A stretch of DNA of 64,000 nt from an uncultured Acidobacteriota bacterium (GCA_963700145.1 OY969474.1:2208001-2272000), one strand, 5' to 3'; counted from the stretch's first letter, positions 1-63,274 are shown. Made by a program: numbers and translations. The notes: generated by a model from the letters alone, not told the origin.

Positions 1-247
1 TCTCTTCGCCGTCGCCGTCCTTCTTCTCCGCCGCCTTCTTCTCCGGCTCCGGCACCCGCTCGAGCCGCACGCTCCGCCCCTGCCACTGGAGCTCCACCGC
101 CCGCACGTCCTCCTCCTCGACGCGGAAGACCTTCTTCGCCAGCTCCGCGCGCTCGGTGCTCGACGGCAGCTCGCGCTCGTAGAACCAGATGAAGGCGCCG
201 AGCGAGGCGACGACGACGAGGAGCGCGAGGAGCGTGCGCGGCTTCAT
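1..247 (-). CDS. DUF4340-like membrane-anchored protein (partial, runs off window)
   Basis: ATG at 247; MKPRTLLALLVVVASLGAFIWFYERELPSS...; N-terminal TM; usual fourth gene of GldAFG-like operons. Confidence 0.7.
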   Translation of the reverse strand, partial: MKPRTLLALLVVVASLGAFIWFYERELPSSTERAELAKKVFRVEEEDVRAVELQWQGRSVRLERVPEPEKKAAEKKDGDGEE

Positions 248-256
248 GCGGGCGGC

Positions 257-1741: not shown

Positions 1742-1743
1742 GC

Positions 1744-2480
1744 CTACCTCCACTTCCGCGCTTCGAGGGCGCGGCTGGTCAGGAAGAGGAAGAAGAGGGT
1801 GGCCGACAGGTAGTAGATCAGCCGCCGGCTGTCGACGACGCCGCGCGCGAACTCGTCCATGTGGCTCCAGAGGTTCAAGTAGCCGAAGACCGTCTTGGCG
1901 GTCTCGCCGCTCAGCAGGTTCTCGAGCAGGCCGAAGCTGAAGAGCAGGATGAGGAGCGCGAAGGTGACGATCGCCGCCACGAGCTGGCTCCTGGTCATCG
2001 CCGAGGCGAACAGCCCGACCGCCAGGAAGAGCGCGCCGATCCCCAGGATCCCCAGGTAGCCGGCGGCGACCGGCCCCCAGTCCACCTCGCTGTGGTAGGC
2101 GATGATCCCGGCGTAGGCCAGGGTCGGAAGCCAGAGGAAGAGGTAGAAGGTGAGGGCCGCCAGGTACTTGCCAGCCACCACCTCGCCTTCGGTGACCGGC
2201 GCCGTCATCAGCACCTCGATCGAGCCGCTGCGCAGCTCCTCGGAAAGCAGGCGCATGGTCAGCACCGGCCCCAGGAAGAGGAGCGTCAGCCAGAAGAAGA
2301 GGGTGCCGCCGAAGAAGAGCTCGAGCGGCGGGCCGCCCGGGGCGCGCGGGTCGTTCAGGAACGAGACGATCATCGCGAAGATGAAGCCGTTGATGAGCAG
2401 GAAGAAGAAGAGGACCACCCACGCGAGCGGCGAGAAGAAGTAGGCCCGCAGCTCGCGCAGGTAGGTCGCCAGGACCGCCC

Positions 2481-9533: not shown

Positions 9534-12359
<2,826 letters not shown>

Positions 12360-12448
12360 GGGTCACGCGCCTCCAAGTCTTGATCAGGACAGGGGATTTT
12401 TCCGGGTGTCAAGCGTAGCGCCGCGCGCGGCCGGGGTCAAGGCCGAAA

Positions 12449-12464
12449 CCACAAGATGTAGCGG
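12449..12464. promoter_or_regulatory. NrdR box 1
   Basis: CCACAAGATGTAGCGG matches acaCwAtATaTwGtgt, upstream of nrdJ. Confidence 0.8.
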
Positions 12465-12480
12465 TGACCCCAGTCATCGC

Positions 12481-12496
12481 TCACTATATGTGGTTT
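12481..12496. promoter_or_regulatory. NrdR box 2
   Basis: TCACTATATGTGGTTT, 32 bp from box 1 (typical tandem spacing). Confidence 0.8.
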
Positions 12497-12611
12497 TCCT
12501 TCTTACAGCTCCACACGTTCTCCACACCATTTCCGCGGACGGATTTACAGCCCCCCCGGGACCGCCCGCGTTGCAACGACGACACGGAGCCGTCACGACA
12601 TTGCCGGCCGG

Positions 12612-13655
12612 CTACTGCTTCGCGGGCTTGGCGGCGAGCGGCGAAAACGCCATGCCGTCGGGCTCCTTGCCGGCGGCGAAGGTGGCCGTGACCTTCCAGG
12701 TCGCGAGGTCGAGGACGGCGATCTTGTCGGCGTTGGCGTGGGCGACGTAGGCGTGGCGGCCGTCGGGATCGACGACGATGCCGATCGGCACCGAGCTCGT
12801 GCCGAAGGCGCCGAGGAGGCGCCCTTCGGCGGCGACGGCCCGCAGGCCGAAGTCGACGCGGCGCTCGAGCTTGCGGTCGGCGGTCGAGACGACCGCCAGG
12901 TCCCCCGTCCGCGCGGCGCTCACCAGCACGCGCTTGCCGTCCGGCGTCGCCTTGGCGCGGATCGGGAACCCCGGCACCTCGACGGCGGCGACCACCGCGA
13001 GCGTCGCGGCGTCGACCACCGTCACCGTCCCCGCCTCCCGGTTCGTCACCCACACCCAGCGCCCGTCCGGCGAGACCTCGACCCCCTCCGCCCCCTCCCC
13101 GGTCTTCACGTCCGCCAGCTTCTTGCCGGCCGCGAGGTCGATGGCCGTCACCGTCCCCGAGCCGATGTTGGCGACGAAGGCGCGGTTGCCGCCGGGCTGG
13201 ACCGCCACCATGTGCGAGACCTCCTGGCCGGTCGCGATCTCGCGCTCGACCGTCCCCGCCTTCACGTCCACCACCAGCAGCGCTCCGCTCGCCTCCGCCG
13301 TCACCAGCGCCCGCCGGCCGTCCAGCCAGGCAAGGCCGTGCGGCCGCCGCGGGGCGCCGAGATCGATCGTCTTCTCGACCTTGGCGGCGGCGACGTCGAT
13401 CACCGTCAGCGTCCGCCCCGGGCGCGGGCCGGTGCCGTAGTCGGCGACGAGCGCGGTGCGGCCGTCCGGCGAGACCGCCAGCTCGTGCGGCCCTTCGCCG
13501 GTCGGGAGCGTCGCGACGACCTTGCCGGACGGCAGGTCGATCAGCGAGACCGTGGCCTCGGCCTTGTTGCCGACGAGGAGCGTCGCGGCATGGGCGGGCA
13601 GGGAAAGGAGGAGCGCGGCGGCGAGCGCCGCGGCGGCACGGGCGGCTGGTGTCAT
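12612..13655 (-). CDS. Secreted YVTN/YncE-type beta-propeller protein
   Basis: Signal peptide MTPAARAAA...AHA; repeated GPHELAVSPDG, GAEGVEVSPDGRWVWVTN, PDGMAFS. Confidence 0.85.
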   Translation of the reverse strand: MTPAARAAAALAAALLLSLPAHAATLLVGNKAEATVSLIDLPSGKVVATLPTGEGPHELAVSPDGRTALVADYGTGPRPGRTLTVIDVAAAKVEKTIDLGAPRRPHGLAWLDGRRALVTAEASGALLVVDVKAGTVEREIATGQEVSHMVAVQPGGNRAFVANIGSGTVTAIDLAAGKKLADVKTGEGAEGVEVSPDGRWVWVTNREAGTVTVVDAATLAVVAAVEVPGFPIRAKATPDGKRVLVSAARTGDLAVVSTADRKLERRVDFGLRAVAAEGRLLGAFGTSSVPIGIVVDPDGRHAYVAHANADKIAVLDLATWKVTATFAAGKEPDGMAFSPLAAKPAKQ

Positions 13656-13742
13656 GGGCGCAACTCTAAGGGAATAGGCCGGCACCCGCCGGGGTTGCCC
13701 TGGGCGCCGCTCCCTCGTTCTAAGATCCGCGCGGCCTCGAGG

Positions 13743-14273
13743 ATGCCCATGACCTTCCGTCCGACCCGCCCGTCCCGCACCGCCGCGCTGGCCCTGGCGC
13801 TCGCCACGACCCTCTTCTTCGGCTGCGGCGGCGGCGCCTCGGCGGGCTCGCCGGGGAAGGTCGGCTCCGCCGTCCCCAAGCTCGCCTTCCGCACCCTGGA
13901 CGGCAAGCCCTTCTCCTTCGACGACCACAAGGGCCAAGTCGTGCTGGTCGACTTCTGGGCCACCTGGTGCACACCCTGCCACCTGCAGACCCGCATCCTC
14001 GAGCCGATCCACCGCGACTACACGGCGAAGGGGGTGAAGTTCTTCTCGGTCGACCTCGGCGAGTCGCCCGAGGCGGTCAAGAAGTTCCTCGCCAAGCACC
14101 CGCTCCCCTACCCGACTCTCCTCGACCCCCAGGACTCCGCCGCCGAGCGCCTGGAGGTCTACGCCCTGCCGACGGTGATGGTCCTCGACAAGAAGGGCAA
14201 GATCGCCTTCCTGCAGAACAGCCTCGTCGACGGGCCCACGCTCCGGCGCATTCTTCAGAAGGCCGGCGCCTAG
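13743..14273 (+). CDS. TlpA-family thiol-disulfide oxidoreductase lipoprotein
   Basis: Lipobox FFGC; VLVDFWATWCTPC; LPT. Confidence 0.9.
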   Translation: MPMTFRPTRPSRTAALALALATTLFFGCGGGASAGSPGKVGSAVPKLAFRTLDGKPFSFDDHKGQVVLVDFWATWCTPCHLQTRILEPIHRDYTAKGVKFFSVDLGESPEAVKKFLAKHPLPYPTLLDPQDSAAERLEVYALPTVMVLDKKGKIAFLQNSLVDGPTLRRILQKAGA

Positions 14274-14278
14274 CCGCT

Positions 14279-14400
14279 AACTCCGCCCGGACGCCTCGGG
14301 TCGAGTTATCGAGGCCTCGGAACTCCGCCCGAACGCTCTGGGTCGAGTTACCGGCGCCTCGGAACTCCGCCCGGACGCTCCGGGCGGAGTTTCCGCCGCC
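14279..14400. repeat. 42-bp tandem repeat (~3 copies), each unit self-complementary
   Basis: Units start at 14279, 14321, 14363 with AACTCCGCCCG...GGGYSGAGTT. Confidence 0.85.
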
Positions 14401-14459
14401 CCAGGATTCCCCGCCGGGGGGCCGGCCGAAACCCGGCCGTCCCCGCAGATCACTCCCCC

Positions 14460-15062
14460 CTAGCTCAACACCACCAGCGCCACCCGCCGGTTCTGCGCCC
14501 GGCCTTCGCGGCTGTCGTTGTCGGCGACCGGGGCGCTCTCGCCGTAGGAGATGATGTTGATGCGGTGGAGCGGGAACTTGTGCTGCTGCGACAGGTACCG
14601 CCGCACGGCCTCGGCGCGCTCCAGGCCGAGGTGCTCGTTGTAGGACTCCCCGCCGATGCCGTCGGTATGGCCCTGGATCTCGATGTAGACACCCTTCCCC
14701 GCCGAGACGAGCCCGTTGGCGAACTCGTCGAGCGCCGCCTTGGCTTCCGGCGAGAGCTCCGCGACGTCGAAGCCGAACTTGACCTTCTCGTCGGTGAGCA
14801 CGGTCTCGTAGAGGAGCTTGCCCTCGGCGAGCTTGCCGGCTTCGGTGGCCCGCTGCAGGGCGTCCTGGGCGGTGCGCGAGGCCTCGCCGATCGCCTGCTC
14901 GTTGCGGCCGATGCGGGTCTGGGCCTCCTCGACCTGCCCCTCGACGTCATCGACGCGGGTGTGGACTGCCTGGGTCTCGCCGCGGACGTACTTCTTCGTC
15001 GCGCAGCCGGCGCTGCCGACCAGCGCCAGCACGAGCGTGAGACAGAGTGTGATCGCTCTCAT
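14460..15062 (-). CDS. OmpA-family lipoprotein
   Basis: Lipobox SAGC; F..D..L, IQGHTD, N..LG..RAEAV, GES.P, NRRV. Confidence 0.92.
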   Translation of the reverse strand: MRAITLCLTLVLALVGSAGCATKKYVRGETQAVHTRVDDVEGQVEEAQTRIGRNEQAIGEASRTAQDALQRATEAGKLAEGKLLYETVLTDEKVKFGFDVAELSPEAKAALDEFANGLVSAGKGVYIEIQGHTDGIGGESYNEHLGLERAEAVRRYLSQQHKFPLHRINIISYGESAPVADNDSREGRAQNRRVALVVLS

Positions 15063-45487: not shown

Positions 45488-46072
45488 GTGGACGAACCAT
45501 CGCCAGGCAGCGTCACGCGCTTCCTCGTCGCATGGCGCGGCGGAGACGAGCAAGCGCTCGAGCGGTTGCTGCCGCTGGTCTACGGCGAGCTGCGCCGGCT
45601 GGCCGGCCGCTACCTGAACCGGGAGCGGGAGGGCCACACCCTCGAGACCCACGACCTCATCCACGAAGCCTTCCTGCGCCTGGTCGACCAGCGGCAGGTG
45701 GACTGGCGCAATCGTGCCCATTTCTTCGCCATCGCCGCGCAAATGATGCGGCGCATCCTGGTCGATCACGCCCGCCGGCGCGGCTACCGCAAGCACGGCG
45801 GCGACGTGCGGCGGCTGATGCTCGACGACGTGCTCGACGTCGCCGCCGAGCGCGACATGGATCTGGTGGCGCTCGACGACGCGCTGACCGAGCTGGCCCG
45901 GGTCGACCCGGAGCTGGCGAAGGTCGTCGACCTGCGCTTTTTCGGCGGCCTCGACCACGACGAGATCGCCGTCGCGCTCGGCGTCTCCAATCCCACCGTC
46001 CGGCGGCGCTGGCGGGTGGCCAAGGCCTGGCTCTACCGCCGGCTCGCGGGCGAGGAGCCGGATGGCGACTGA
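45488..46072 (+). CDS. ECF sigma factor, Ser/Thr-kinase-associated type (TIGR02999-like)
   Basis: VYGELRRLA, HTLETHDLIHEAFLRL, RAHFFAIAAQMMRRILVDHAR, LRFFGGL, AKAWL. Confidence 0.92.
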   Translation: MDEPSPGSVTRFLVAWRGGDEQALERLLPLVYGELRRLAGRYLNREREGHTLETHDLIHEAFLRLVDQRQVDWRNRAHFFAIAAQMMRRILVDHARRRGYRKHGGDVRRLMLDDVLDVAAERDMDLVALDDALTELARVDPELAKVVDLRFFGGLDHDEIAVALGVSNPTVRRRWRVAKAWLYRRLAGEEPDGD

Positions 46073-48574
46073 GCGCTGGCGCGAGATCGAAGCGCTCTTC
46101 GCCGAGGTCGCGGCGCTGCCGGCCGCGGAGCGCACGCCCCACCTGACGCGCCGCTGCGGCGGCGACGAGGACCTGCGGCGGGAGGTCGAGTCCCTCCTCG
46201 CCGCCGACGCCGCGGCCGGCGACTTCCTCGAGCAGCCGGCGGTGCCGCCCGCCGACGTCTCGCCGCCGCCCTCGGCGGTCGGACGCCGGATCGGTCCCTA
46301 CGCCGTCGAGCGCCTCCTCGGCGCGGGCGGCATGAGCACCGTCTACCTCGCCGTGCGCGCCGACGAGGAGTACCGCCAGCAGGTCGCCATCAAGGTCTTC
46401 GGCTACGGCGCCGACCGCGCCGACTTGGTCGAGCGCTTCCGCGCCGAGCGGCAGATTCTGGCCTCCCTCGACCACCCCAACATCGCCCGCCTGCTCGACG
46501 GCGGCACCACCGAGGACGGGCTGCCGTACCTGGTCATGGAGTACGTCGAGGGCCTCCCCATCGACCGCTACTGCGACGAGCGCGGCCTAGGCCTCGACGC
46601 GCGCATCGACCTCTTCCGCCAGGTCTGCGCGGCGGTGCAGTACGCGCACCAGAAACCTGGTGGTCCATCGCGACATCAAGCCGTCGAACATTCTGGTGAC
46701 CGCCGACGGCGTGCCGCATCTCCTCGACTTCGGGATCGCCAAGCTCCTGGCCGGCAGCTCCCTGCCGCCGGCGGCCGCGGCCACGACGACTGGCCAGCGG
46801 CTGATGACGCCGCACTACGCGAGCCCCGAGCAGGTCGAAGGCCGGCCGGTCAACACCGCGAGCGACGTCTACTCCCTGGGCGTCCTGCTCTACGTGCTGC
46901 TGACCGGCCGCCTGCCCTACCGCTTGGAGGCCGAGCGCGTGGACGCGGTCGAGCGCGCGGTCGTCGAGCAGGAGCCGGAGCGGCCGAGCGCGGCGGTCGC
47001 CGCGCGGACGCTCGCCCGCCGGCTCGCCGGCGACCTCGACAACATCGTGCTGACGGCGCTGCGCAAGGAGCCGGCGCGGCGCTACGCCTCGGTCGAGCTG
47101 CTGGCCGAGGACCTGCGGCGCCACCGCACGGGCCTGCCGGTCCTGGCGCGCCCGGCGACCGTCGGCTACCGGGTGGGCAAGTTCGTGGGCCGCCATCGCC
47201 TGGGGGTCGGCGCCGGTTCTGGACCGGGGCGCGGCCCAGATCACCAACGAGCTCGCGGAGCAGCCGGACGTTCAGGCGGCGCTCGCCGTCACCATTGCCC
47301 GGGCCTACGGCGGCCTCGGCCTCTACGATCGCGCCCAGCCCCTCCTCGAGCGCTCGCTCGCCTTGCGGCGCCGGGTCTTCGGCGCCGCGCACCCGGAGGT
47401 GGCCGAGACGCTCCACGAGCTCGGCGTCCTGCATTGGGCGCGCGGCGAGCTGGACCTCGCCGAGGCCACCCTCCGCCAGGCGCTCGCGATGCGCCGGGCG
47501 CTTCTGGACGCCAGCGACCCCGCGGTGGCCGAAACTCTCAACGCGCTGGGCTTGGTGCTCGTCTTCAAGGCGCGGTTCGACGCCGCCGAGCCGTTGCTCC
47601 GCGAAGCCCTCGCCCTCAATCGCGCGCGGTACGGCGACGACCATGAGGAGGTGGGGAGCAACCTGGTCAATCTCGGCCTCCTGACGAAGCAAAAGGGAGA
47701 CCTCGCCGCGGCCGAAGCCCTCTACCGCGAGGGCCTGGCGATCTTCCGCCGGCTCTTGGGCGGGGCACACCCCCAGGTCGTCATCCAGCTCAACAACCTG
47801 GCGGTGCTGCAATACGAGCGCGGGGACTACGCCGCCGCCGAGGCGAGCTACCGCGAGATGCTGCCCGTGGCGCATCGAGTCTACGGCCGGGAGCACCCCC
47901 AGGTCGCCCTCTACCTCCACAACCTCGCGGCCGTGCTCTCCTGGCGCGGCAAGAACGACGAGGCCGAGCGCCTGGAGCGCGAGTCGCTGGCGATGCGGCG
48001 CAAGCTCCTGGGCGGTGAGCACGAGCAGGTCGGGATGGGCCTCAACATGCTCGCCAAGATCCTGGAGGAGAAGGGCGAGCTCGGCCGCAGCCGGCCGATC
48101 TACGAAGAGTCGCTGCGCATCCAACGCCAGGCCCTCGGCGAGGAGCATCCGCGAGTGGCTGCCGTGCTGGCCAATCTCGCCGGCCTGCTCGCCCAGCAGG
48201 GAGATCCCGCGGCCGCCGAGCCCCTGGCCCGACAGGCCCTCGCCATCCGCCGCCGGGCGCTCGGCGAGGCGCACCCGGACGTCGGGTCCTCGCTCGCGCT
48301 GGTCGGATCGCTCCGGCTCGCCCGCGGCGCACCGGCGGAGGCTGAGCCCCTGCTGCGCCAGGGCCTGGGAGTGCTCCGGGCGGCGCTCTCGGACTCCCAC
48401 TGGCGGACCGCCGAGGCGCAGAGCCTGCTCGGGGAGTGCCTGGCGGCGCGAGGGAAGACGGCGGAGGCCGAGCGGCTCATGACCGCCGGCTACGAGACCC
48501 TGGTGAAGACCCGGGGAGTGGAAAACCCCAAGACCGTGGCCGCGCGTCAACGGCTCGCCAAGCTGAACGGTTGA
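46062..48574 (+). pseudogene. Ser/Thr kinase-TPR receptor, disrupted (frameshift plus internal deletion)
   Basis: GAGGM, VAIK in one frame; extra A at 46653-46655; HRDIKPSN, DFG, YASPEQ in second frame; jump at ~47215 into TPR frame (VLDRGAAQI..., HPxVA..LNNLA repeats). Confidence 0.85.
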
Positions 48575-48622
48575 TCACTTTCGCCGCGGTTTCCCGCGTT
48601 AGGGGCGAAAGGAGACCGATCC

Positions 48623-48679
48623 ATGAAGACCAAGACCCACGTCAAGGCCGGCGGTATCACGGCGTCCGGCGCCGACTAG
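48623..48679 (+). CDS. Double-glycine micro-peptide precursor MKTKTHVKAGG-ITASGAD
   Basis: AAAGGAGA RBS; leader homologous to the four opposing peptides; TAG at 48677-48679. Confidence 0.82.
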   Translation: MKTKTHVKAGGITASGAD

Positions 48680-48755: not shown

Positions 48756-48806
48756 TCAGTCGGTGAGCAGCCTGCCGCCGGCCTTGACGGTCGTCTTGAC
48801 ACGCAT
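48756..48806 (-). CDS. Double-glycine micro-peptide precursor MRVKTTVKAGG-RLLTD
   Basis: GGAGGTGA RBS; 16 codons plus TGA; array unit 4. Confidence 0.88.
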   Translation of the reverse strand: MRVKTTVKAGGRLLTD

Positions 48807-48855
48807 CGCGATCACCTCCCTTCGCTTGGATTCCAGGCAGCGTTCCGCCGCCGGG

Positions 48856-48906
48856 TCAGTCGCTGAGCAGCACGCCTCCGGCCTTGACGGTCGTCTTGAC
48901 ACGCAT
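48856..48906 (-). CDS. Double-glycine micro-peptide precursor MRVKTTVKAGG-VLLSD
   Basis: GGAGGTGA RBS; 16 codons plus TGA; array unit 3. Confidence 0.88.
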   Translation of the reverse strand: MRVKTTVKAGGVLLSD

Positions 48907-48958
48907 CGTGATCACCTCCCTTCGCCAGGTTTTTCCTCACAACGTCTTTCGCCGCGGA

Positions 48959-49009
48959 TCAGTCGCCGAAGATGATGCCTCCGGCCTTGACGGTCGTCTT
49001 GACACGCAT
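48959..49009 (-). CDS. Double-glycine micro-peptide precursor MRVKTTVKAGG-IIFGD
   Basis: GGAGGT RBS; 16 codons plus TGA; array unit 2. Confidence 0.88.
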   Translation of the reverse strand: MRVKTTVKAGGIIFGD

Positions 49010-49058
49010 CGCATTTACCTCCCTTCGCAAGGACTCCAGGCAGCGTTTCGCCGCCGGA

Positions 49059-49109
49059 TCAGTCGCCGATGAGCACGCCTCCGGCCTTGACGGTCGTCTT
49101 GACACGCAT
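49059..49109 (-). CDS. Double-glycine micro-peptide precursor MRVKTTVKAGG-VLIGD
   Basis: GGAGGTGA RBS; 16 codons plus TGA; array unit 1, 82 bp after the ABC exporter stop. Confidence 0.88.
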   Translation of the reverse strand: MRVKTTVKAGGVLIGD

Positions 49110-49191
49110 CGCGGATCACCTCCCCTCCGCCCAGATTTTTCGATCGCTGATCCCTGAGTCCCCGCGGGACCGGAATCCGTTCAATCCGGCC

Positions 49192-51321
49192 CTACGGGTG
49201 GGCGATGACGAGGAGCGTCGGCGCGCGCCGCAGGACGCAGGAGAGCGCCTGCCGCAGGCTCTCCGGGTCGAGGGCGGCGAAGCTCTCGTCGAGGACGACC
49301 AGCTCGGCCTTCTGGAGCAGCGCGCGGGCGATGTAGAGCCGGCTCTTCTCGCCGTGCGAGAGCTGCCAGCCCGACTCGCCGACCATCTGCAGCAGGCCGG
49401 CGGGCATGCGGTCGAGGACGTCGCCGAGCCCCAGCTCGCGGCAGACCGCCTCGGCCTCCTCGACGTCGCCCGGCCGCGGCGGCCAAGCGCGGCCCATCAG
49501 CAGGTTGAAGGCGAAGGTGTCGGTCAGGACGTGGTTCTCCTGGAACTGCGGCGCCGCCACCGCCCGCCGCCGCCACCCCTCGGCGCCGAGCGAGTGCCGG
49601 TCCAGGCCGTCGAGCAGCAGCAGCCCCGACTGCGGCAGGCGCAGGCCGGTGAGCAGCGCGGCGAGCGTCGATTTGCCGCCGCCCGAAGGCCCTTCGAGCA
49701 GCAGCCGCTCGCCCTGCCGCACCGCCAGCGAGGCGCCGGCAACGGCGAGGTCGGCGCGCTCGCCGTAGCGGAAGCCGAGGTCGTGCGCCTCGAGGACGAC
49801 CCGCGAGCCGCCGGCGCCTGCCTGCGCCATCGGGATCAAGGCCGCTCCCGGCGCCGACGCCTCGGAGCGCGCGGCGGCGCGGAAGATCGGCGCCACCTGG
49901 TCCCACGCCACCGCCGCCTCCGACAGGTCGGCCAGCCCGCGGACCATCTTCCACAGCGCCCAGTACGCGAAGAGGGCGCCGCCCAAGGCGACGGCGAGGC
50001 TCCCCGACGACGCCGTGCCGGCGACGAACGGCCGGGCGAGCGCGAGGAGGCTCACCAGCAGCCAGCCGCGCGGCACCAGCACCCGCAGCAGCGCCGCCCG
50101 CCGGTCGAGTTCCGCCGAGAGGTCGAGGTAGCGCTCCAGCTCGCCGTCCTCGCGCTCGTGCCAGCGCTCGGCGCTCTGCTGCGCCAGGCGCGTGCGGTGC
50201 CCGACCATCTGCTCGACCAGGTCGTGCGTCATCTCCAGCCGGGCCGCGGTCCAGACGCGCCTTTGCTCGAGGTACCGCCAGCCGAGCCAGAGCGCGAAGG
50301 CGACCCAGGCGAGGAGCGAGAGGGCGTGCGGCCAGCCCCCGGCGCCGGCGGCGAGGACCGGCAGCGCGAGGAGGACCTCGGCGAAGGTGATCACGCCGAC
50401 GTGCGCCCCGGTCAGCGCCAGGAACTCCAGGGCCTCGGCGTTCAGGATGCGGCCGAGGAGCTGGCCGGCGCCCTGGTGGCGCGTCTCCTCGGGCGCCATG
50501 CGCAGGGCGCCCACCAGCAACCGGCGCTTGAAGAGCCGCCCGGCGCGCGCCATCAGCACGCCCGCCGACCAGAGCTCCAGGGCGCGGAACGGGATGACGG
50601 TCAGCTGCAGCAGCACCCAGGCGGTGACCCAGGCGGGATCGAGCCGCCCCCGGAGGACGCCGAGGCCTAGCACCCACCACGACAGGAGGAGCAGCGCGTG
50701 CTGCGCCATGTGCGCGCCGACCAGGACGGCGGCGCGCCCCGGCAGCCCTGCCCGCCGCGCCGCCGCCCAGAAGCTGCCGCCGGGCGGCAGGTCGAGGAGC
50801 CAACAGCCGCCGATCCGCCGCTCGGCGAGCCGCTCGGCGAGGAGCGCCTCGCGCGCCCGCTCCCGCCGGCGCGGCGGCACCGCCGCCTCGTCGAGCAGGC
50901 GGTCCACCTCGGGGCCGAGGCCGGCGTCGAGATCGCCGCGCAGCGCATCGCGCAGCGCGGCCACCGAGACCCGCCGCGGGCGATGATCGCGGCCGAGCAC
51001 GCGGACCTGCCGGCGGCCGCCGGCGAGGAGGGCGAGGAAGCCGCCCGCGGCCCCCGGCAGGCGGAGCAGCGCCGGCGCGGCGTGGCCGACCAGCGCCGCT
51101 ACCTCGCCGTAGGCGGCCTCGACGGGCTCGGCCTCGAGCCCCATCGCCGCCGCCGCGGCGCCGATCCAGCGGTCCAGCTCCTCGACCGAGACCTCCGGGG
51201 GCGGCTCCGGCAGGTCGAGCTTGCCGGGTGCGAGCCCGGCGGCGCGGGCCAGGGCGGAGAGCGCCTCGCCGAGCCGATCGGCCGGCCAGACGAGCGCGTC
51301 GAGGTCGGGCCGCGCCTTCAC
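49192..51321 (-). CDS. ABC exporter with degenerate C39-like N-terminal domain
   Basis: GTG overlapping upstream TGA; GLEAEPV..PALL.L without catalytic Cys/His; GPSGGGKST, LSHGEKSR, LDES. Confidence 0.88.
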   Translation of the reverse strand: MKARPDLDALVWPADRLGEALSALARAAGLAPGKLDLPEPPPEVSVEELDRWIGAAAAAMGLEAEPVEAAYGEVAALVGHAAPALLRLPGAAGGFLALLAGGRRQVRVLGRDHRPRRVSVAALRDALRGDLDAGLGPEVDRLLDEAAVPPRRRERAREALLAERLAERRIGGCWLLDLPPGGSFWAAARRAGLPGRAAVLVGAHMAQHALLLLSWWVLGLGVLRGRLDPAWVTAWVLLQLTVIPFRALELWSAGVLMARAGRLFKRRLLVGALRMAPEETRHQGAGQLLGRILNAEALEFLALTGAHVGVITFAEVLLALPVLAAGAGGWPHALSLLAWVAFALWLGWRYLEQRRVWTAARLEMTHDLVEQMVGHRTRLAQQSAERWHEREDGELERYLDLSAELDRRAALLRVLVPRGWLLVSLLALARPFVAGTASSGSLAVALGGALFAYWALWKMVRGLADLSEAAVAWDQVAPIFRAAARSEASAPGAALIPMAQAGAGGSRVVLEAHDLGFRYGERADLAVAGASLAVRQGERLLLEGPSGGGKSTLAALLTGLRLPQSGLLLLDGLDRHSLGAEGWRRRAVAAPQFQENHVLTDTFAFNLLMGRAWPPRPGDVEEAEAVCRELGLGDVLDRMPAGLLQMVGESGWQLSHGEKSRLYIARALLQKAELVVLDESFAALDPESLRQALSCVLRRAPTLLVIAHP

Positions 51322-54023
51322 CCTTCCTCCGCCTCGGTCAAGCGGCCGCGCTCCATCCGCAGCCGCCGCCAGACCGTGCTCTGCCAGAGCCCCGACCGCA
51401 CGTCGCCTTCGGCGGCCAGGAGCGCGGCGTAGCGCGACCCCGGTTGCGCGGCGAGGCGCTCGGGCGGGCCGTCCTCGACGATGCGGCCGTTCTCGACGAC
51501 GAGGGCGCGCGCGAAGCCCAGCGTCTCGCCGACGTCGTGGGTGACGCAGAGCAGCGTCGCGCCCTGCCAGAGACGGCGGGCCCGCGCCAGCAGCTCGCGC
51601 CGCTGCTCGCGGTCGAGACCGCGGAACGGCTCGTCGAGAAGGACCAGGCGCACCCCGGGCCGCAGCAGCGCGCGCGCCAGGCGCACTCGCTGGCCCTCGC
51701 CGCCGGAGACCAGGCCGCCGCCTTCGCCGAGCGGCGTCTGCAGGCCCTCCGGCAGCTTGCGCAGCACGGCCACCAGGTCGGCGGCGCCGATCGCCTGGTC
51801 GAGCGGCAGGCCGAGGCCCTCTGCCGCGCCGTAGCGGAGGTTTTCGAGCAGCGGCCGGTTCCAGAGCTGCACCGCCGGATCGACCCAGGCGGTCTCGCGG
51901 CGCAGCGCCTGCAGCCGCTCGCCGCCGAGCGGCTCGCCGTCCACCAGCACGCGGCCCGCGGCCGGCCGGTGCCAGCCGAGGAGAGTCCCGAGGAGGCTCG
52001 ACTTGCCGGCGCCGGAGGGGCCGACGATGGCGACGTGCTCGCCGGGCGCGATCGCGGCGCCGATGCCGGCGAGGATCGTGTGCCCGCCGGCGCGCACGCC
52101 GACGTCCTCCCAGACGATGCCGGCGGCGGGCGCGGGCGACGACGTCAGAGAAGACGGCGCGGCGGCGTGCGGTCCGGCCTCCTCGGCCTCCTCCGGCGCG
52201 CCGAGCGGCTCGAGCAGGCGCAGGGCGACGTTGCGGTGCGAGGGGTACTGGGTGGCGATCGCCAGGATCAGCATCTGCCCGAGGCTCAGGACCTTGAGCC
52301 CCCAGTAGACGAGCAGCAGGATGCCGCCGTCGAGCCCGCGGCGGGCGAGGTGATCGACGAGCAGGACGATCACCATCGAGACCATGGCGATCTGCACCGC
52401 CGTGTCCGCCGCCACCTCGGCGCGGCGCAGGTGGAGGTAAGAGCGCCCCCACTCGACGAGCAGCCCCTCGTGCTGCCGCCGCACCGCCGTCTGCGCGCCG
52501 TGGGTGCGGATCGGGAAGAGGCCGAGGAGCGCGTCGAGGTAGAAGCGCGACAGTGCGCCGGCGTGGTTGCGCACCCGCAGGTCCCACTCCTCGAGCCGCG
52601 GCAGCAGCACGAGCGGCACGCCGACCGCCAGCGCCGCAGCGACGGCGACGACCAGGAGGCTCCCCGGGTCGAGCCAGACGATGCCGGCCAGGGTGAAGAG
52701 CAGCTCGCAGGCGGTGCGCACGAACCACTCGCCGAGGTCGGGCACCAGGCGGAGGCGGTGGACGCCGTGGCTGCGGTCGGCCATGTCGGAGGTCAGGCGG
52801 CTCTGGAAGTAGCGGTCGCCCAAGCGCGGCACCTTGCGCAGGAAGGCCATCCGCAGCCGCGCCTCGAGGTGCCGCCCCAGACGCTGCGCGCCGCGCACGA
52901 TCGGCAGGTCGAGGAGGAGGAAGAGGGCGACGACGGCGAACAGCATGCCGAGCGCCGCGGCCCGCTGGGCGCCGAGCCCAAGCGCCCGCGGCAGGTCGAA
53001 GAAGGCGCGGAAGAGGAGCGCCTCGACGACGACCCCGAGGCCGGCGACCAGCAGCGCCAGCGCCAGCGCGCCCGGCGCGAAGCGGCCGCCGGCGGCGAGC
53101 AGGCGGAGCAGCTCGCGGCCCGGCCGCGCCGGCGGCTCGGCGAGGGCGGCCGCCAGCTCGGGCGAGAGCGGGCTCGGCGCGGCGGCTGCGGCATCGGACT
53201 CCGGTCCGCGGCGGCCGCGGACGCGCACCAGGACGGCGCCGCGCAAGAGCACCTGCTCCTCGCCGTCCGCGCCCGGCGGGCCGGGCCGCACGGACCACCA
53301 GGCCTCGGGCACGGCCTCTGTCGCCGTCTCTCCACCGTCGCGGCAGCGAGCGAGCAGTGAGCGCAGCAGTCGCCCGGCCTCGCCGCCTTTGGCGAGCCCG
53401 CCCGCGGCGACGAGTGAACGGGTCATGCGCACGCAAGCGTCGAGCGCGGCGAGCGCGCGCCAGCCGGGATCGGCCAGTGCCGCCGCCAGCAGCTCGCCGG
53501 CCTCGGCGTCCGAGATGCCGAGCTCGCCCAGGAACGCCCGCTGAACGTCGAGGAAGTCGGCCGAGCCGGCCCATTCGCGGAAGGCCGCCGCCGGCACCGC
53601 CTGCCGGTGGCGGTAGAGCTCGCCGAGGAGCCGGCGCGCCGTCGTCCAACGGCGCCCGGTGGCCGGGTCCATCACCTGGACGAGCGGGCCGTGGCGGCGC
53701 CAGACGACGATGAAGTGGGTCAGCCCGCTCGGGTGGCGGACGACGACGATCGCCGGCAGGTTGTGCGCCGCCGGCGCCAGCAGGTGGTCCGCCGGCACCA
53801 CGACCTGCTCGGCCTCCAGGCCGAGCTGCGCCGCGACCTCCTCCATGGTGTCGATCGAGGTGCCGTCGAGATCGATCTGGCAGGCCTCGCGCAGGCGGCC
53901 GTAGCTCACCGGGATGGCGAAGCCTTCGAGCAGCGACTTGAGGGTCGCCGGCCCGCAGTCCATGGCCGAGGTCTGGACGACCTCGGGGGCGAGGAAGGAG
54001 CGGCGGTCCGGCGGGCGGGACAT
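51318..54023 (-). CDS. Peptidase-containing ABC transporter (C39 peptidase + TMD + ATPase)
   Basis: Start MSRPPDRR; QTSAMDCGPA (Gln, Cys), THFIVV (His), VMDPATG (Asp); GPSGAGKSS, VSGGEGQR, LLDEP. Confidence 0.92.
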   Translation of the reverse strand: MSRPPDRRSFLAPEVVQTSAMDCGPATLKSLLEGFAIPVSYGRLREACQIDLDGTSIDTMEEVAAQLGLEAEQVVVPADHLLAPAAHNLPAIVVVRHPSGLTHFIVVWRRHGPLVQVMDPATGRRWTTARRLLGELYRHRQAVPAAAFREWAGSADFLDVQRAFLGELGISDAEAGELLAAALADPGWRALAALDACVRMTRSLVAAGGLAKGGEAGRLLRSLLARCRDGGETATEAVPEAWWSVRPGPPGADGEEQVLLRGAVLVRVRGRRGPESDAAAAAPSPLSPELAAALAEPPARPGRELLRLLAAGGRFAPGALALALLVAGLGVVVEALLFRAFFDLPRALGLGAQRAAALGMLFAVVALFLLLDLPIVRGAQRLGRHLEARLRMAFLRKVPRLGDRYFQSRLTSDMADRSHGVHRLRLVPDLGEWFVRTACELLFTLAGIVWLDPGSLLVVAVAAALAVGVPLVLLPRLEEWDLRVRNHAGALSRFYLDALLGLFPIRTHGAQTAVRRQHEGLLVEWGRSYLHLRRAEVAADTAVQIAMVSMVIVLLVDHLARRGLDGGILLLVYWGLKVLSLGQMLILAIATQYPSHRNVALRLLEPLGAPEEAEEAGPHAAAPSSLTSSPAPAAGIVWEDVGVRAGGHTILAGIGAAIAPGEHVAIVGPSGAGKSSLLGTLLGWHRPAAGRVLVDGEPLGGERLQALRRETAWVDPAVQLWNRPLLENLRYGAAEGLGLPLDQAIGAADLVAVLRKLPEGLQTPLGEGGGLVSGGEGQRVRLARALLRPGVRLVLLDEPFRGLDREQRRELLARARRLWQGATLLCVTHDVGETLGFARALVVENGRIVEDGPPERLAAQPGSRYAALLAAEGDVRSGLWQSTVWRRLRMERGRLTEAEEG

Positions 54024-54031
54024 GCGGGCGG

Positions 54032-55198
54032 CTAGTCGGCGGCGGCGGGGCGGTCGAAGACCTTGCCGACCGTGCGCAGGACGAGGACGGCGGGCGCCAC
54101 CCGCTCGACCTCCACCTCCGCCGTGCCCGGCAGGCCGTGCTGCAGCGGCAGCCGGGAGCGGCGGTCCGGCCGCAGGGCGAGCTCGACGCGGATGCGCCCG
54201 TCGCGCGGCTCGCTGGCGACGCGGGCGACGCGCGCGGCCAAGTGCCCGTACTGCGCCGAGGGGAAGCCACTCAGGACGATCCGCGCCGGCTGCCGCGGCC
54301 GGATCCGGCCGAGGGCGGAGGCGGGCGCGAACTCGGCGATCCCCTTGAGGTCGCCCGCCGGCACCACCATCCCGAGCTGCTCGCCGGCGGCGACGACCGA
54401 GCCGACCCGCACCGCCGCGATCTCCGCGACGCGGCCGGCGACTGGCGCTCGGATCGCGCGCAATCCGACGTCGCGCTCCAGGCGCCGGACGGCGGCGCCG
54501 GCGGCGGCGGCCTGCCCGGCGAGCAGCGCCAGCTCGCGCTCCAGCTCGTCGACGTCGCCGCGCCGCTCGCCCTCGGTGCTCCGCTCCTCGTAGCCGAGGC
54601 GGTCGAGGGTGCGGCGCAGGGCATCGGCGGCGGCGCGCCGCTGCTCGGCCGCCGAGCGCGCCCTCTCCGCCTCGGCCGCCGGCACCAGCCCCTGGGCGAG
54701 GAGGCGCTCCTGCCGGTCGGCCTCCTGCTGCGCCAGCCGCGCCGCGGCCTCCGCCTCCCGGGTCTTGGCGAGCGTCTCCTCGATGCCGGCGCGGGAGGCG
54801 CCGAGCCGGCCGGCCAGCGACCGCCCGCCGGCCGCGATCTGCTGGCGCAGAGCGGCGATCTGCCCGGCGAGAGCGTCCCGCCGCGCCCGCTCCTCGTCGA
54901 GCCGCGCCCGCGGCTCCTCCGCCTCCAGCTCGATCAGGACTTGGCCCTGGCGCACCCGCTGCCCGAGCGCCGCCCGCACCGCCGCCACCCGCCCCTCGAC
55001 CGGCGCCGCCAGCGGATGCGCCTCGCGCCCCACCGCCAGCCAGGCGCGGTCCGTGACCTCGTACACCGACACCCGCCCGCGCACGAACCACACCCCCCAG
55101 GCGCCGAGCAGCAACAGCGCCGGCACCAACCCGGCGATCCACCGCCGGTGGCCGTCAACCTCAAGGGCGCGCAACGTGCGCGAGAACGGGCTGGGCAT
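54032..55198 (-). CDS. HlyD family membrane-fusion (periplasmic adaptor) protein
   Basis: N-terminal TM, APVEGRV..GQ.V..GQVL, coiled coil, IRAPVAGRV, LQHGLPG. Confidence 0.9.
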   Translation of the reverse strand: MPSPFSRTLRALEVDGHRRWIAGLVPALLLLGAWGVWFVRGRVSVYEVTDRAWLAVGREAHPLAAPVEGRVAAVRAALGQRVRQGQVLIELEAEEPRARLDEERARRDALAGQIAALRQQIAAGGRSLAGRLGASRAGIEETLAKTREAEAAARLAQQEADRQERLLAQGLVPAAEAERARSAAEQRRAAADALRRTLDRLGYEERSTEGERRGDVDELERELALLAGQAAAAGAAVRRLERDVGLRAIRAPVAGRVAEIAAVRVGSVVAAGEQLGMVVPAGDLKGIAEFAPASALGRIRPRQPARIVLSGFPSAQYGHLAARVARVASEPRDGRIRVELALRPDRRSRLPLQHGLPGTAEVEVERVAPAVLVLRTVGKVFDRPAAAD

Positions 55199-55354
55199 GC
55201 GAGTGCGGCAGCGTAGCACCGGCCAAGGTCAGCCCTTCGAGTCACCGCTCGTCGTGGGACGGCTCCAGAGAAGAATTGACCGCTTCGACGCGCGAGAATA
55301 GACTTGGCTATCCGTTGTCGTCATCGTCGCGTGCGCACACGCCGGGAGGCTCAC

Positions 55355-57463
55355 ATGATCTTGGTCAAGACGTCGCATCGCCGCGGCCTGTTTGCGTCGG
55401 CATGTGTGATCGCGTGTTTCTCGCTTGGCGGCATCGCGCTCGCGGGCGAGATTGATGGCGACATCGCCAACACGAACCCGATCAGTTGCGGAAGCAACCC
55501 GGCCGCCTCGATCGTCAAGGTGTGCAACACCGTGAAGAAGGTCTTTTCCTCGATCACCTGTCCGAGCGATAAGAATTCGTGTGTCAAGCCAAAGCGGGAG
55601 ATCTTCACAGGCCTGACCGTCGAGGGCGCGACGCCCACCAATATCAAGCCGTGGAACGGACAAGGCGGCGGCGGCGAGGTTTTCCAACTGGTCGGCGTCT
55701 GCTTGATGCGCGACCTGGCCGTCACACCCATGAAGTCGCATGCGGAGGCGACCATTGAGGTCGGGCTGACAAGCGCGACGGTCTCTGCGGACGGCCTCGT
55801 CTCTTACGGGAGGTTCGACAAGACCGATCTGACCAAACTGCGCTTCGAGGGCTTCCACAGCTTGCGCGCGCATGCGCCGATCATCGGCGACATCGACATT
55901 TTCACGCAGCCCTTCTCGCTGCAGACGGTCTCGCAGTCCCTCCAGGGCCAAGGGTTGAAGGTCGGCGGCTACGACGTCTATGGCGCACAGGCGCTCGAGC
56001 TCGAAGCGGTGGGCGGAGCCCAGAGGTTCGACTTCGCCCTCGATGCCATCAAGATCGTGACGCCCTACGGGACGATCTCGCCCCAGCCCCATGTCGGATT
56101 CGCGCAGGTCCTCGGCTGGAGCATGTCGCCCTATGGCGGCGCCAGCACGATGCTGCTCAATCCGGGCGCGTACCAAGTCACCGACGTCTATGGCCGCCTG
56201 GGCGGACAGAAGGTCGCGAGCGGCCTCAACGTCGTCAAGACGACAAGCGGCCCTGGCGGGCCGGGCTGCATCCCCGTCCAAATCAGTCCCGACAAGATCT
56301 GCCCCAATCCGGTTGGTTGGGACAGCCAAGTTCTCCTCGGCTCGCGCAACGTCAACCTCGATACGTCCATTGCGGTGAACACGCCTTGGACAGCGCCGCC
56401 CGGCGTCGCCTTTCCGGATCGGCCGGACGCCCAACCGCAGCGCGCACGCGGCGATGCCGAGAAGACACCCGGCGGTGCTGCGTCGGCCGGTATCAAGATC
56501 GAATACACGCCGCCCATTCCGCTGCCGGAGATACCGGCCCCTGTCGCGTTGACGGCGAAGCTGAGCGTGTTCGTCGATCCCAATATCGTCGTGCTCTACG
56601 GAAGCCAGTACAATCTGTGGAACGGACAAGTCGGCACATGGCTGCCTGGAGGCGTGCCGTTCGGCGCGCCGACCTTGGGTACGCCGGTCGACGTGCAAAG
56701 CCTACAGAGCATGGCGATCTATGCCGCCTCGACGGTCTATGGCCGCTTCGCGCTCGATGCCGGGGTCGACATCGTGCTCCACGTGCACATCACGCTGCCC
56801 AAGGTGTGCAGCCCCTTCGACTCCGACGAGTGCTGGCCGGACGACATCGACTTCGACATTGTCGATCTCCATCCGCGTACGGCGTTTCTGGAGAGCAAAG
56901 CCGGTGACACGGAGCCTTCGGAGCAAGCCGCCTTTGCGCTCGTCGACTCGCAAAACTTCGTCAAGACCCAGAAACTCTTCAGTATCTTCACACCGCTGAA
57001 TGGCACGCCCACCGACGGCGTCGCCTACATCGAGCAGTGCCTGAAGCAGGATGCGCCGGCGGCGCAAGATCCGCCCGAGAATCCCTACGTTCCGGGCGAT
57101 CCCCAAGCCCTCGTTGAAGTGATCGAGATGCCCTGCAATGTCTGCCTCGGCATGCCGGACATCAAGTATCAATACCCTCTCGAGTGGGACCCGGTCACCG
57201 CCCACGTGACGAAGTCGGAGACCCGCACGCAGGAAGGCTTCGGCATCAAGCAGCTGCCAGAGGTGACAGACGGGCTTGAGCCGGGTGATCAATGGCTATG
57301 CGCCTGGGTCCCGCAACTCGAGCGGGTCGTGAACTTGGGCTGCTACGACCAATGCCGGGTCAACAAGGCGACCAACACGTTCACGGTGATCGCCTCCGCC
57401 AAGACACTTTGGGCAGAAGGCAAGTTCACCGGCGAATCGTTGCCGCCCCACGGCTGCCTCTAA
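55355..57463 (+). CDS. Large secreted Cys-rich protein of unknown function
   Basis: GGAGG RBS; signal MILVKTSHRRGLF...IALA; 18 Cys; lower GC than flanks. Confidence 0.8.
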   Translation: MILVKTSHRRGLFASACVIACFSLGGIALAGEIDGDIANTNPISCGSNPAASIVKVCNTVKKVFSSITCPSDKNSCVKPKREIFTGLTVEGATPTNIKPWNGQGGGGEVFQLVGVCLMRDLAVTPMKSHAEATIEVGLTSATVSADGLVSYGRFDKTDLTKLRFEGFHSLRAHAPIIGDIDIFTQPFSLQTVSQSLQGQGLKVGGYDVYGAQALELEAVGGAQRFDFALDAIKIVTPYGTISPQPHVGFAQVLGWSMSPYGGASTMLLNPGAYQVTDVYGRLGGQKVASGLNVVKTTSGPGGPGCIPVQISPDKICPNPVGWDSQVLLGSRNVNLDTSIAVNTPWTAPPGVAFPDRPDAQPQRARGDAEKTPGGAASAGIKIEYTPPIPLPEIPAPVALTAKLSVFVDPNIVVLYGSQYNLWNGQVGTWLPGGVPFGAPTLGTPVDVQSLQSMAIYAASTVYGRFALDAGVDIVLHVHITLPKVCSPFDSDECWPDDIDFDIVDLHPRTAFLESKAGDTEPSEQAAFALVDSQNFVKTQKLFSIFTPLNGTPTDGVAYIEQCLKQDAPAAQDPPENPYVPGDPQALVEVIEMPCNVCLGMPDIKYQYPLEWDPVTAHVTKSETRTQEGFGIKQLPEVTDGLEPGDQWLCAWVPQLERVVNLGCYDQCRVNKATNTFTVIASAKTLWAEGKFTGESLPPHGCL

Positions 57464-61866: not shown

Positions 61867-62033
61867 GGCGCGAAGGCCTTCGCGCCGGGCTCCGATCCGG
61901 TGGCACACCCCTTGCTCTCTTCCCCGGCCACACAGGGCGCGGAAGGTGCTGCCAGTCCTAGAGCGGTCGCCCTGATTTCTCCAGCCGCCAACCGCTCGGG
62001 AAGCCTTCCGGGCCTTTCATGGAGGAAGCCGCC

Positions 62034-62198
62034 GTGTTGAGATGGGCACTGATCTTCCTGGTCGTCGCACTGATCGCCGCGGTCCTCGGCTTCGGTGGCA
62101 TCGCCGGTGGCGCCGCCGAGATCGCCAAGATCCTCTTCTACCTCTTCCTCGTCGTCTTCGTGATCTCCCTGATCCTGGGGCTGGTGCGGAGAGCCTGA
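62034..62198 (+). CDS. DUF1328 (UPF0391) small membrane protein
   Basis: GGAGG RBS, GTG; [35 protein letters not shown]. Confidence 0.9.
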
Positions 62199-63274
62199 AC
62201 CCCAGCGGCGGCCGCCTGCGCGACGCTTCCACGGGGCCGTTCTCCGTCCGCTCGGCGGCGCTGAGCGGCCTCTTCGTCCTCGCCTCCCTCTACACCCTCT
62301 ACTTCGCGCGCTCCTTCATCCTGCCGGTGGTGCTGGCGCTGCTGCTGAGCCTGGTGCTCCAGCCGCTCGTCCGCGGCCTGAAGCGGCTGCGCATCCCGGC
62401 GGGGCTGGGCGCTCTCCTGGTGCTGCTGGCGCTGCTCGGCACGCTGGTGGCCGCGGGCTACTACCTGGCGGGGCCGGCCATCGAGTGGATGGACCGCGCG
62501 CCGGGGAGCATGCGGACGCTCGAGACCAAGCTGCGCGAGCTCAAGGCGCCGGTCGAGCGCATCGGCGAGGCGACGGCGCGGGTCGAGGAGATGACCCAGG
62601 TCGGCGAGGAGGGGCCGCGGCCGGTGGAGGTCGAGAGTCAGAGCCTCGGCCAGCGCCTCTTCCAGAACACCTGGAACTTCGTGGCCAACGCCTTCCTGGT
62701 GCTGGTGCTGCTCTACTTCCTGCTCGCCGCCGGAGACCTCTTCCTGCTCAAGGGGGTGCGCGTCCTGCCGACGCTGGCGGACAAGAAGCGCGCGGTCGAG
62801 ATCCTGCGCCAGGTCGAGAGCGAGGTCTCGGCCTACCTCTCGACCCTCACCCTGATCAACATCGGCCTCGGCGCCGCGGTCGGGCTCGCCTTCTGGCTCC
62901 TCGACATGCCCAACCCGGTGCTTTGGGCGGTGATGGTGGCGCTGCTCAACTACATCCCCTACATCGGCGCGATTGTCGGCGCCGCGGTCATGGCGGTCGT
63001 CGCCTTCCTGACCTTCAAGGAGACCGGGCACGCGATGCTCGTGCCGCTCGCCTACCTGGTGATCAACTTCGTCGAGAGCTACTTCGTGACGCCGATGGTG
63101 CTCGGCCGCCGCCTGACGCTCAACCCGGTGGTGATCTTCGTCGGTCTGACCTTCTGGGGCTGGATCTGGGGCGTGACCGGGGCGCTCATCGCGGTGCCGC
63201 TCATGGTGATCCTCAAGATCCTCTGCGACCACAGCGAGCGGCTGGCGCCGGTCGGCGAGTTCCTCGGCTCGTAG
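62195..63274 (+). CDS. AI-2E family transporter
   Basis: [39 protein letters not shown]; start inferred at CTG overlapping upstream TGA. Confidence 0.85.

Follow-up and report, generated by a model that had tools for sequence, protein, structure and literature searches.

Four tandem ORFs and a fifth on the opposite strand, found in a 64,000-nt stretch of DNA from an uncultured Acidobacteriota bacterium (hereafter the window), are, on comparative sequence evidence, real small genes, and the peptides they are predicted to encode belong to a large, widespread, and unnamed family, here termed KAG-leader peptides. We give a probability of about one half to the reading that these peptides are minimal-leader substrates of a PCAT pair, in which the leader would be docked and then cut by one of two adjacent ABC exporters (ABC1) and the tail would be exported via an HlyD-coupled route. 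The preliminary description, in which the array was seen as a set of leader/core peptide precursors, is supported in its essentials.

Signalling between cells by means of peptides is textbook knowledge for Gram-positive bacteria and, to our knowledge, barely documented in Gram-negative phyla; likewise, we know of no cargo for most Gram-negative PCATs. At KAG loci, a candidate cargo family is directly visible, in genes that escape gene callers because they are only 14–20 codons long. The family is frequent in metagenomes, with 2816 representative clusters matched at E<=0.001 by a profile of its multi-core relatives alone, and it goes together with a highly conserved protease domain and, in two lineages, with two different kinase-to-transcription-factor wirings. 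It bears on minimal leader recognition by C39 peptidases and on ligand sensing by bacterial Hanks kinases. Acidobacteriota are a dominant and poorly understood soil phylum, and the system is simple enough to be testable (hexapeptides, one protease domain, and one promoter).

Peptide genes and exporter operon in the window

The array forms the last part of an operon in the order HlyD, ABC1, ABC2, peptide genes, and begins 82 nt past ABC2 on the same strand (Table 1). Its division into four tandem 16-codon genes, each with an SD, an ATG, and a TGA, is as the preliminary description gave it, with all four genes on the minus strand; that orientation had been missed, as had the fifth, plus-strand gene at 48623–48679 and the transporter and kinase context. 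Each array gene encodes MRVKTTVKAGG followed by VLIGD, IIFGD, VLLSD, or RLLTD over 16 sense codons, with GGAGG 8–9 nt 5' of the ATG and, in 4/4 copies, the GAC TGA end that had been reported as an invariant Asp-stop. The 33-nt leader was correctly described as the same DNA in the four copies save for one synonymous Gly codon, GGA>GGC at codon 10 of copy 4. The further statement that the next four codons differ in every copy holds for the peptide, which is distinct in each copy across codons 12–15, but not for every single codon, some of which are common to several copies (V12 in copies 1 and 3, L13 in copies 1, 3, and 4, and G15 in copies 1 and 2).

Table 1. Coordinates of the peptide genes, exporter operon, and regulatory genes in the window
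Feature	Position	Strand	Description
Peptide gene 1	49059..49109	-	16 codons + TGA, MRVKTTVKAGGVLIGD; SD GGAGGT at 49123-49118
Peptide gene 2	48959..49009	-	MRVKTTVKAGGIIFGD, tail ..IIFGD
Peptide gene 3	48856..48906	-	MRVKTTVKAGGVLLSD, tail ..VLLSD
Peptide gene 4	48756..48806	-	MRVKTTVKAGGRLLTD, tail ..RLLTD; codon 10 is GGC, not GGA
Fifth family member	48623..48679	+	18 codons + TAG, MKTKTHVKAGGITASGAD
ECF-type sigma factor	45488..46072	+	TIGR02999 217 bits (cut-off 126); PF07638; overlaps kinase start
Receptor Ser/Thr kinase with TPR domain	46062..48574	+	Pseudogene here; 899-932 aa intact in relatives
HlyD-family membrane fusion protein	54032..55219	-	395 aa; first in operon
ABC exporter 1 (ABC1)	51318..54023	-	901 aa; N-terminal C39 peptidase; Gln/Cys/His/Asp present
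ABC exporter 2 (ABC2)	49192..51321	-	709 aa; N-terminal C39-like fold without catalytic Cys, His

Tandem Repeats Finder returned periods of 100 nt (3.5 copies) and 203 nt (1.8 copies) for the array, from which we conclude that it is a duplicated pair. When units 2 and 4 are compared, 42/50 positions match in the spacer, 32/33 in the leader, and 5/12 in the four variable codons; on these small numbers, the leader changes more slowly, and the core faster, than the neutral-looking DNA alongside. For a 14-nt leader word, chance predicts 0.28 occurrences in the window; 5 are present, a count reached in 0/100 shuffles, and the whole 5.46-Mb genome holds just these 5 copies (control matches, 0). The fifth gene is convergent with the array and starts 48 nt past the kinase–TPR gene.

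Within the operon, the ABC1 ATG lies 8 nt past the HlyD stop, and the ABC2 GTG start overlaps the ABC1 stop (GTGA). ABC1 matches Pfam Peptidase_C39 at 1.8e-18, an alignment of its C39 domain to PCAT1 (4ry2) places the Gln, Cys, His, and Asp in register, and the corresponding residues Q11, C17, H97, and D113 are invariant among 49 sequences. The domain is unusually conserved, at 61–96% identity across phyla, which parallels the conservation of the peptide leader. For the ABC2 N-terminus there was no PDB match by sequence; the best fold matches of its model (pLDDT 91) were the PCAT1 peptidase domain and the C39-like structures 3b79 and 3zua, all weak (E 0.005–0.1, TM up to 0.59). Since the C39 residues are complete in ABC1 and the C39-like domain of ABC2 lacks the Cys and His, the exporter is probably a heterodimer in which only one of the two peptidase domains is active, the other being degenerate. 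A complex predicted for the C39 domain and a 46-residue multi-core relative had a score of 0.02 (mark, 0.32) and weighs neither for nor against binding, the window 16-mers being below the useful size for this method. Divergent from the HlyD operon lies a gene for a 719-residue predicted secreted protein (55304–57463, plus strand) that had no Pfam or NCBIfam match and is not conserved in related loci; the stretch that holds it is lower in G+C (0.60–0.66 vs about 0.75).

Conservation and distribution of the KAG-leader family

Relatives were fetched with the ABC2 protein out of 61 related genomes and 80 public contigs (loci), the latter labelled mostly Acidobacteriota along with Chloroflexota, Myxococcota, Desulfobacterota/Deltaproteobacteria, Thiotrichales, and Entotheonella. 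A strict search, which demanded M-x-x-[KRQ]-x3-[KRQ]-[AGSTC]-G together with an SD and a stop, found 65 ORFs in 32/80 transporter loci and 0 in reversed sequences. The motif [VIT][KR][TSA]x[VILT]KAG, sought in six-frame translations of the 80 loci and the window (1.29 Mb) with no demand on start, SD, or stop, gave 106 matches against 0 in the reversed-sequence control. A start codon lies exactly two codons 5' of the motif in most of these (ATG in 76/106, GTG or TTG in 9/106), and the other 21 are mostly internal repeats in longer relatives. Among the 76 ORFs that start with ATG, 71 carry an SD and 60 reach a stop 4–9 codons past KAG. A looser leader motif was dropped, having given 151 matches but 25 in the control.

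The family layout is a ten-residue leader, M-[KR]-V-K-[TS]-x-V-K-A-G, that is basic and has no acidic residue; the tail after it is short, 6 to 9 residues in most members. Across 69 distinct genes, conservation stops sharply at Lys8-Ala9-Gly10: K8 is present in 69/69 though the search admitted K, R, or Q, Ala9 is found in 66, and Gly10 is invariant, while V3, T5, and V7 are conserved despite having been free in the search. Residue 11 is Gly in only 39 of the 69, so that the family-wide motif is Ala-Gly; the alternatives at this position across the family are S, Q, D, P, T, L, and A, and all five window peptides have Gly10-Gly11. Codon entropy in the leader of these genes is 0.7–1.8 bits at the third position vs 0–0.8 bits at most first and second positions.

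The preliminary description had proposed comparing arrays among related genomes, both in copy number and in leader versus core substitution. In that comparison, SD, ATG, frame, and stop are retained, which runs against the non-coding repeat that their loss would have indicated, and copy number differs between close relatives (4+1 in the window genome, 2+2 in G004, and 2+1 in G003, with ABC2 proteins 96–98% identical). Among 21 genes from 10 sources, pN/pS is 0.30 in the leader and 0.90 in tail codons 12–15; taken together with the entropy values and the comparison of array units, this indicates that the leader is under purifying selection and that the centre of the tail is not. The earlier contrast between a conserved leader and a hypervariable core thus stands as to the leader, but “hypervariable” overstates the case for the core, because cores of the window class keep a hydrophobic-hydrophobic-hydrophobic-small-Asp pattern and the same ones turn up in different genomes (of the 21 genes, four have VLIGD and four have VLISD). 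From this codon-level conservation we infer that the peptide genes are translated.

Tail classes are lineage-specific. Thermoanaerobaculia tails have the forms G-h-h-h-s-D and G-I-x-x-[ST]-G-x-D, and tails ending W-G-G, W-G-S, or W-A-G occur in Terriglobales-type loci (L062, L073, L074, and L079) and also in L044 and L081. Tails of the form Q-S-T-x-G-I-L-E were found in L047 and L058, and x-T-E-F-K-F-[DE] in L112 and L114; in Chloroflexota loci, the tail is hydrophobic, conserved, and longer. Multi-core relatives of 40–240 residues carry a leader-like decapeptide ahead of each of 2–5 variable segments, which end in an N-H-N-Q-like motif; L076:4537–4674 and proteins P0003–P0227 are examples. 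The named multi-core relatives are all annotated as “hypothetical protein” and none has a Pfam domain. Pfam and NCBIfam held no model matching four longer members, and nothing for two 48-residue read-through ORFs across the array. No account of the family turned up in the main texts of the openly searchable literature, covered by leader strings and concepts, and one may already exist elsewhere.

Within the genus, peptide genes were found only in genomes that bear ABC2 (three in G003 and four in G004), with none in G001 and G002, which are without ABC2 and are only 81% and 91% complete. A strict DNA pattern was present in 4/401 genomes of an even sample of the phylum (control matches, 0), which makes the peptide system patchy in the phylum. 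A 122-nt contig from a metatranscriptomic library (run X1) aligns to 48621–48652 with 2 mismatches, after which a different eight-residue tail and a stop follow, and it therefore represents the peptide gene of a relative; because DNA can occur in such libraries, we do not count it as expression. The window organism's own sequence was essentially absent from the four sequencing runs aligned.

Proposed processing, export, and signalling

We propose that the leader would be recognised by both N-terminal domains (C39 and C39-like) of the heterodimeric PCAT, that ABC1 would cut it, most likely after Ala9-Gly10, and that the tail of 6–8 residues would then be pumped out via the HlyD-coupled channel; the predicted products are GVLIGD, GIIFGD, GVLLSD, GRLLTD, and GITASGAD. 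An array directly past an exporter with an intact C39 peptidase is what a leader/core precursor requires. Cleavage, its site, export, and sensing are steps that we infer, and we place the cut after Gly10 because family conservation goes no further than Ala-Gly and the next residue varies, with Pro, Asp, Gln, and Leu among those found at position 11. A cut after GG, as assumed in the preliminary description, fits less well given the frequency of Gly at residue 11, and the alternative that it mentioned, a cut at AG|G that would give Gly-initiated hexapeptides, fits better, with conservation ending at Lys-Ala-Gly. Several observations weigh on the other side. C39 peptidases prefer Gly at position -2, where Ala is atypical, and the leader, half as long as usual, lacks the double-glycine consensus, both of which count against C39 cleavage; that the strict search found peptides in only 32/80 transporter loci counts against these peptides being PCAT substrates; and the recurrence of the leader motif inside one multi-core polypeptide is not fully explained by a single cut after each KAG.

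Once outside, the tails would probably act as extracellular, cell-to-cell signals. Four features favour this role: the products would be tiny and unmodified, genes for tailoring and immunity are lacking, the receptor kinases have extracytoplasmic domains, and there are dedicated promoters. ORF clustering across the 80 loci and the window revealed no modifying enzyme common to the neighbourhoods: no radical SAM, YcaO, LanM or LanB, ATP-grasp, or other tailoring family is common to the 80 neighbourhoods, nor do they hold a conserved immunity-like gene. The families that they do have in common are ABC, HlyD, kinase/TPR/activator, SPFH, pentapeptide, and ParA-like. A family of ~373 residues, noted for Chloroflexota loci, lies near the cassette in 18 loci; the one member scanned (L097:11137–12252, on a contig labelled Anaerolineales MAG), located just past ABC2, is an SPFH/Band-7 protein.

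The same neighbourhoods bear on the possibility that the peptides are instead precursors of bioactive natural products, either RiPPs with remote tailoring enzymes or tiny unmodified bacteriocin- or microcin-like molecules, with the kinase and sigma factor only regulating production. We consider this unlikely, although tandem precursors with a fixed leader and diverging cores beside a C39-ABC exporter with HlyD are classic features of such loci. In L044, moreover, an S9 prolyl-oligopeptidase-family gene (63–2213, minus strand) lies directly 3' of a three-gene array with Trp-Ala-Gly tails, but no other locus showed it. Neither a common tailoring family nor a conserved immunity-like gene accompanies the peptides, and their tails lack Cys and have few of the residue patterns typical of tailoring-enzyme targets. 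Unmodified products of 5–8 residues would also be far below the size of any bacteriocin known to us. The three-gene architecture does equal that of the NHLP/Nif11 export cassette, whose precursors may, according to the part of the source used here, sit far from their modifying genes (PMC2887384). Between the two options named in the preliminary description, RiPP or pheromone precursor, an unmodified, pheromone-like peptide is favoured over a RiPP because no modifying enzyme is conserved near the loci.

If the tails are signals, their receptor would be a single-pass Ser/Thr kinase that senses them through a periplasmic TPR or beta-propeller domain and then switches the transcription factor that drives the peptide genes, namely an ECF sigma factor here and an FHA-sigma-54 activator in Terriglobales, which would close an autoinduction loop. 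In the window, the ECF sigma and kinase genes are convergent with the array. The pair is also found in L036, L039, and L056, and in L039 all four peptide genes lie directly 3' of the kinase. A single membrane segment follows the kinase domain in 5/5 kinases examined; in intact relatives it lies between the kinase and TPR domains, so that the TPR should face the periplasm. The window kinase gene, intact in G003 and G004, carries a one-base A insertion near 46655 that shifts the frame and a ~56-codon deletion near 47210 by which the membrane segment is lost. With its kinase a pseudogene, the window genome probably has an open signalling loop. Across the 80 loci, the kinase is present in 19, of which 8 have detected peptides and several of the rest are truncated by contig ends, and its sensor domain is either TPR or PD40. 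The kinase link is thus lineage-limited, and may reflect kinase-rich genomes.

Next after ABC2 in two Terriglobales-type loci, L062 and L079, comes a kinase that bears a PD40 beta-propeller region; a divergent FHA-GAF-sigma-54 activator, Pfam-confirmed in these two, lies beside the array. Consensus sigma-54 promoters stand ~80–95 nt 5' of the first peptide ATG in L062, L073, L074, and L079 (e.g. CTGGCACGGGTCTTGCT). The class of tail appears to go with the type of sensor, Asp-ending tails occurring with TPR and Trp-Gly-Gly/Ser tails with PD40, a correspondence seen in two lineages and confounded by phylogeny. Directly past ABC2 in L109, a single open frame (9616–14727) spans kinase, TPR, GAF, sigma-54 activator, and HTH, and could be a genuine fusion or simply an ORF that runs on through G+C-rich sequence. 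For the window array, a sigma-54 promoter was considered and rejected, none being present in 48.5–49.3 kb or before HlyD; loose matches in the whole window number 19 vs 14.8 expected, and scans for sigma-70 promoters and terminators gave nothing above chance. A perfect sigma-54 consensus, TGGCAC-N5-TTGCT, occurs elsewhere in the window at 61901–61916 (plus strand), ~125 nt 5' of an ORF at 62042–63274. The pseudogene kinase and the lack of a sigma-54 site near the array count against a signalling role here.

In its most complete form, the signalling proposal would describe pheromone communication among diderm bacteria of soil and sediment (Acidobacteriota, Chloroflexota, Myxococcota, Desulfobacterota, and Thiotrichales) based on genes of 14–20 codons. 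A 10-residue leader would be cut after Ala-Gly by a heterodimeric PCAT, and Hanks kinases would sense the unmodified products of 6–8 residues in the periplasm through their TPR or beta-propeller domains. These kinases would in turn switch an ECF sigma factor or FHA-sigma-54 activator to close autoinduction, with tails serving as strain “dialects” and multi-core precursors releasing several signals. We offer this full scheme only tentatively.

Export itself is dispensed with in another alternative, in which uncleaved 16-mers would act inside the cell, either as regulators of the transporter or kinase or through their translation, which would regulate neighbour genes. Such a role would agree with the N-terminus being the most conserved part of the peptide and resembling the start of the organism's own bL36 (MKVRSSVR.. 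vs MRVKTTVK..), and with the recurrence of the motif as a module in multi-core relatives. It seems improbable to us, more so than a natural-product role, because it leaves unexplained the ties to a transporter with invariant C39 catalytic residues, the retention of 2–5 copies with different tails, and the sharp stop of conservation at Gly10; furthermore, an array 3' of the operon cannot be an upstream attenuator. The bL36 likeness (L116:1501–1614) is position-for-position with the first eight leader residues, encoded at window positions 49109–49086, and could be due to chance, a shared translation-start preference, or common origin. Finally, a non-coding tandem repeat, acting as regulatory or structural DNA or RNA with accidental ORFs, is very unlikely. 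In its favour, ORFs as short as these turn up readily in 72% G+C DNA, and leader DNA within the array is more conserved than a typical coding region. Against it, at least four phyla retain the start, frame, SD, and stop, with third positions changing synonymously, the reversed-sequence control gave 0, the array has no Rfam family or tRNA, and the convergent inter-gene spacer folds no better than shuffles (z = 0.39).

Relation to known export and signalling systems

As candidate PCAT substrates, KAG-leader peptides are best compared with the double-glycine peptides, which include ComC/ComAB-type pheromones, class II bacteriocins, and class II microcins. In each, the N-terminal leader is short and ends in small residues (GG in the window), the genes lie next to that of an ABC exporter whose C39 domain is catalytically complete, and a variable exported part goes with a membrane fusion protein, as in Gram-negative systems, and with a nearby sensor kinase and transcription factor. 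Canonical double-glycine leaders have acidic and Leu/Ile positions before the GG and end in Gly-Gly, Gly-Ala, or Gly-Ser, whereas conservation in the KAG family ends in Ala-Gly and the exported part would be only 5–8 residues. The preliminary description rightly noted that the leader is shorter than the double-glycine norm and lacks the canonical motif: it has 10–11 residues (10 in the family layout) vs about 15–30, half the usual length, and its alternating Val/Lys/Thr residues show none of the canonical consensus described for TIGR01847 in the cited part of PMC2887384. The KAG exporter also consists of two different ABC proteins, and a Hanks-type Ser/Thr kinase takes the place of a histidine kinase as the putative sensor.

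The NHLP/Nif11 cassette (TIGR03794-TIGR03796-TIGR03797; Haft et al. 2010, PMC2887384) has the same set of an HlyD-like protein, an ABC-peptidase, and an ABC protein without active peptidase, and as described there it also serves multi-copy precursors whose similarity ends at the cleavage motif. In the section of that paper used here, the authors predict that the cassette serves further, undiscovered peptide families as well. The window proteins score far below the cut-offs of the three models (46.4 vs 156.2 bits for HlyD, 157.6 vs 853.3 for ABC1, and 105.4 vs 709.4 for ABC2), so that only the architecture is in common. The leader has 10 residues, against mean Gly-Gly positions of 83 and 70 reported in the same source, and the window precursors, at 16–18 residues in total, have no nitrile-hydratase-like or Nif11-like long leader. 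Unlike NHLP/Nif11 loci, the window locus has no linked cyclodehydratase or LanM. More generally, RiPP clusters place a leader-dependent modifying enzyme beside the precursors, and no such family is common to the KAG neighbourhoods (80 loci and the window).

On the sensing side, RRNPP systems of the Rap-Phr type combine a cytoplasmic TPR receptor, a re-imported oligopeptide, and a pro-peptide with a Sec signal, a layout unlike the one here; the window TPR follows a kinase domain and a single membrane segment, and the peptides have no signal peptide and are encoded beside a PCAT. The sigma factor and kinase genes resemble ECF43-type pairs (PknT/EcfP and PknS/EcfK; PMC13147305), in which, as in the window, the ECF gene precedes and overlaps that of a single-pass Hanks kinase with an extracytoplasmic domain; co-occurrence of the two is given there as a hallmark of ECF43-type regulation by sigma phosphorylation. 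The likeness is one of gene adjacency: the window sigma factor matches TIGR02999/PF07638, and by eye its sigma-2.2 region still has acidic residues, the ECF43 motif there being uncharged and Thr-containing. The part of PMC13147305 cited here describes neither a peptide ligand nor a linked exporter for the published pairs. As for PCATs proposed to process signalling peptides in Gram-negative bacteria, ABC1 can be set beside HetC of Nostoc PCC 7120, for which export of small regulatory peptides has been proposed, with very short ones suggested as cargo and the substrate unknown in the cited part of the source (PMC10986499). According to that source, hetC has no adjacent leader-bearing gene, whereas at KAG loci candidate substrates are adjacent and numerous. 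Overall, the KAG system as predicted from these genes is a new and widespread variation on the double-glycine/PCAT theme, set apart by its unusually short and different leader and by its link to a Ser/Thr kinase.
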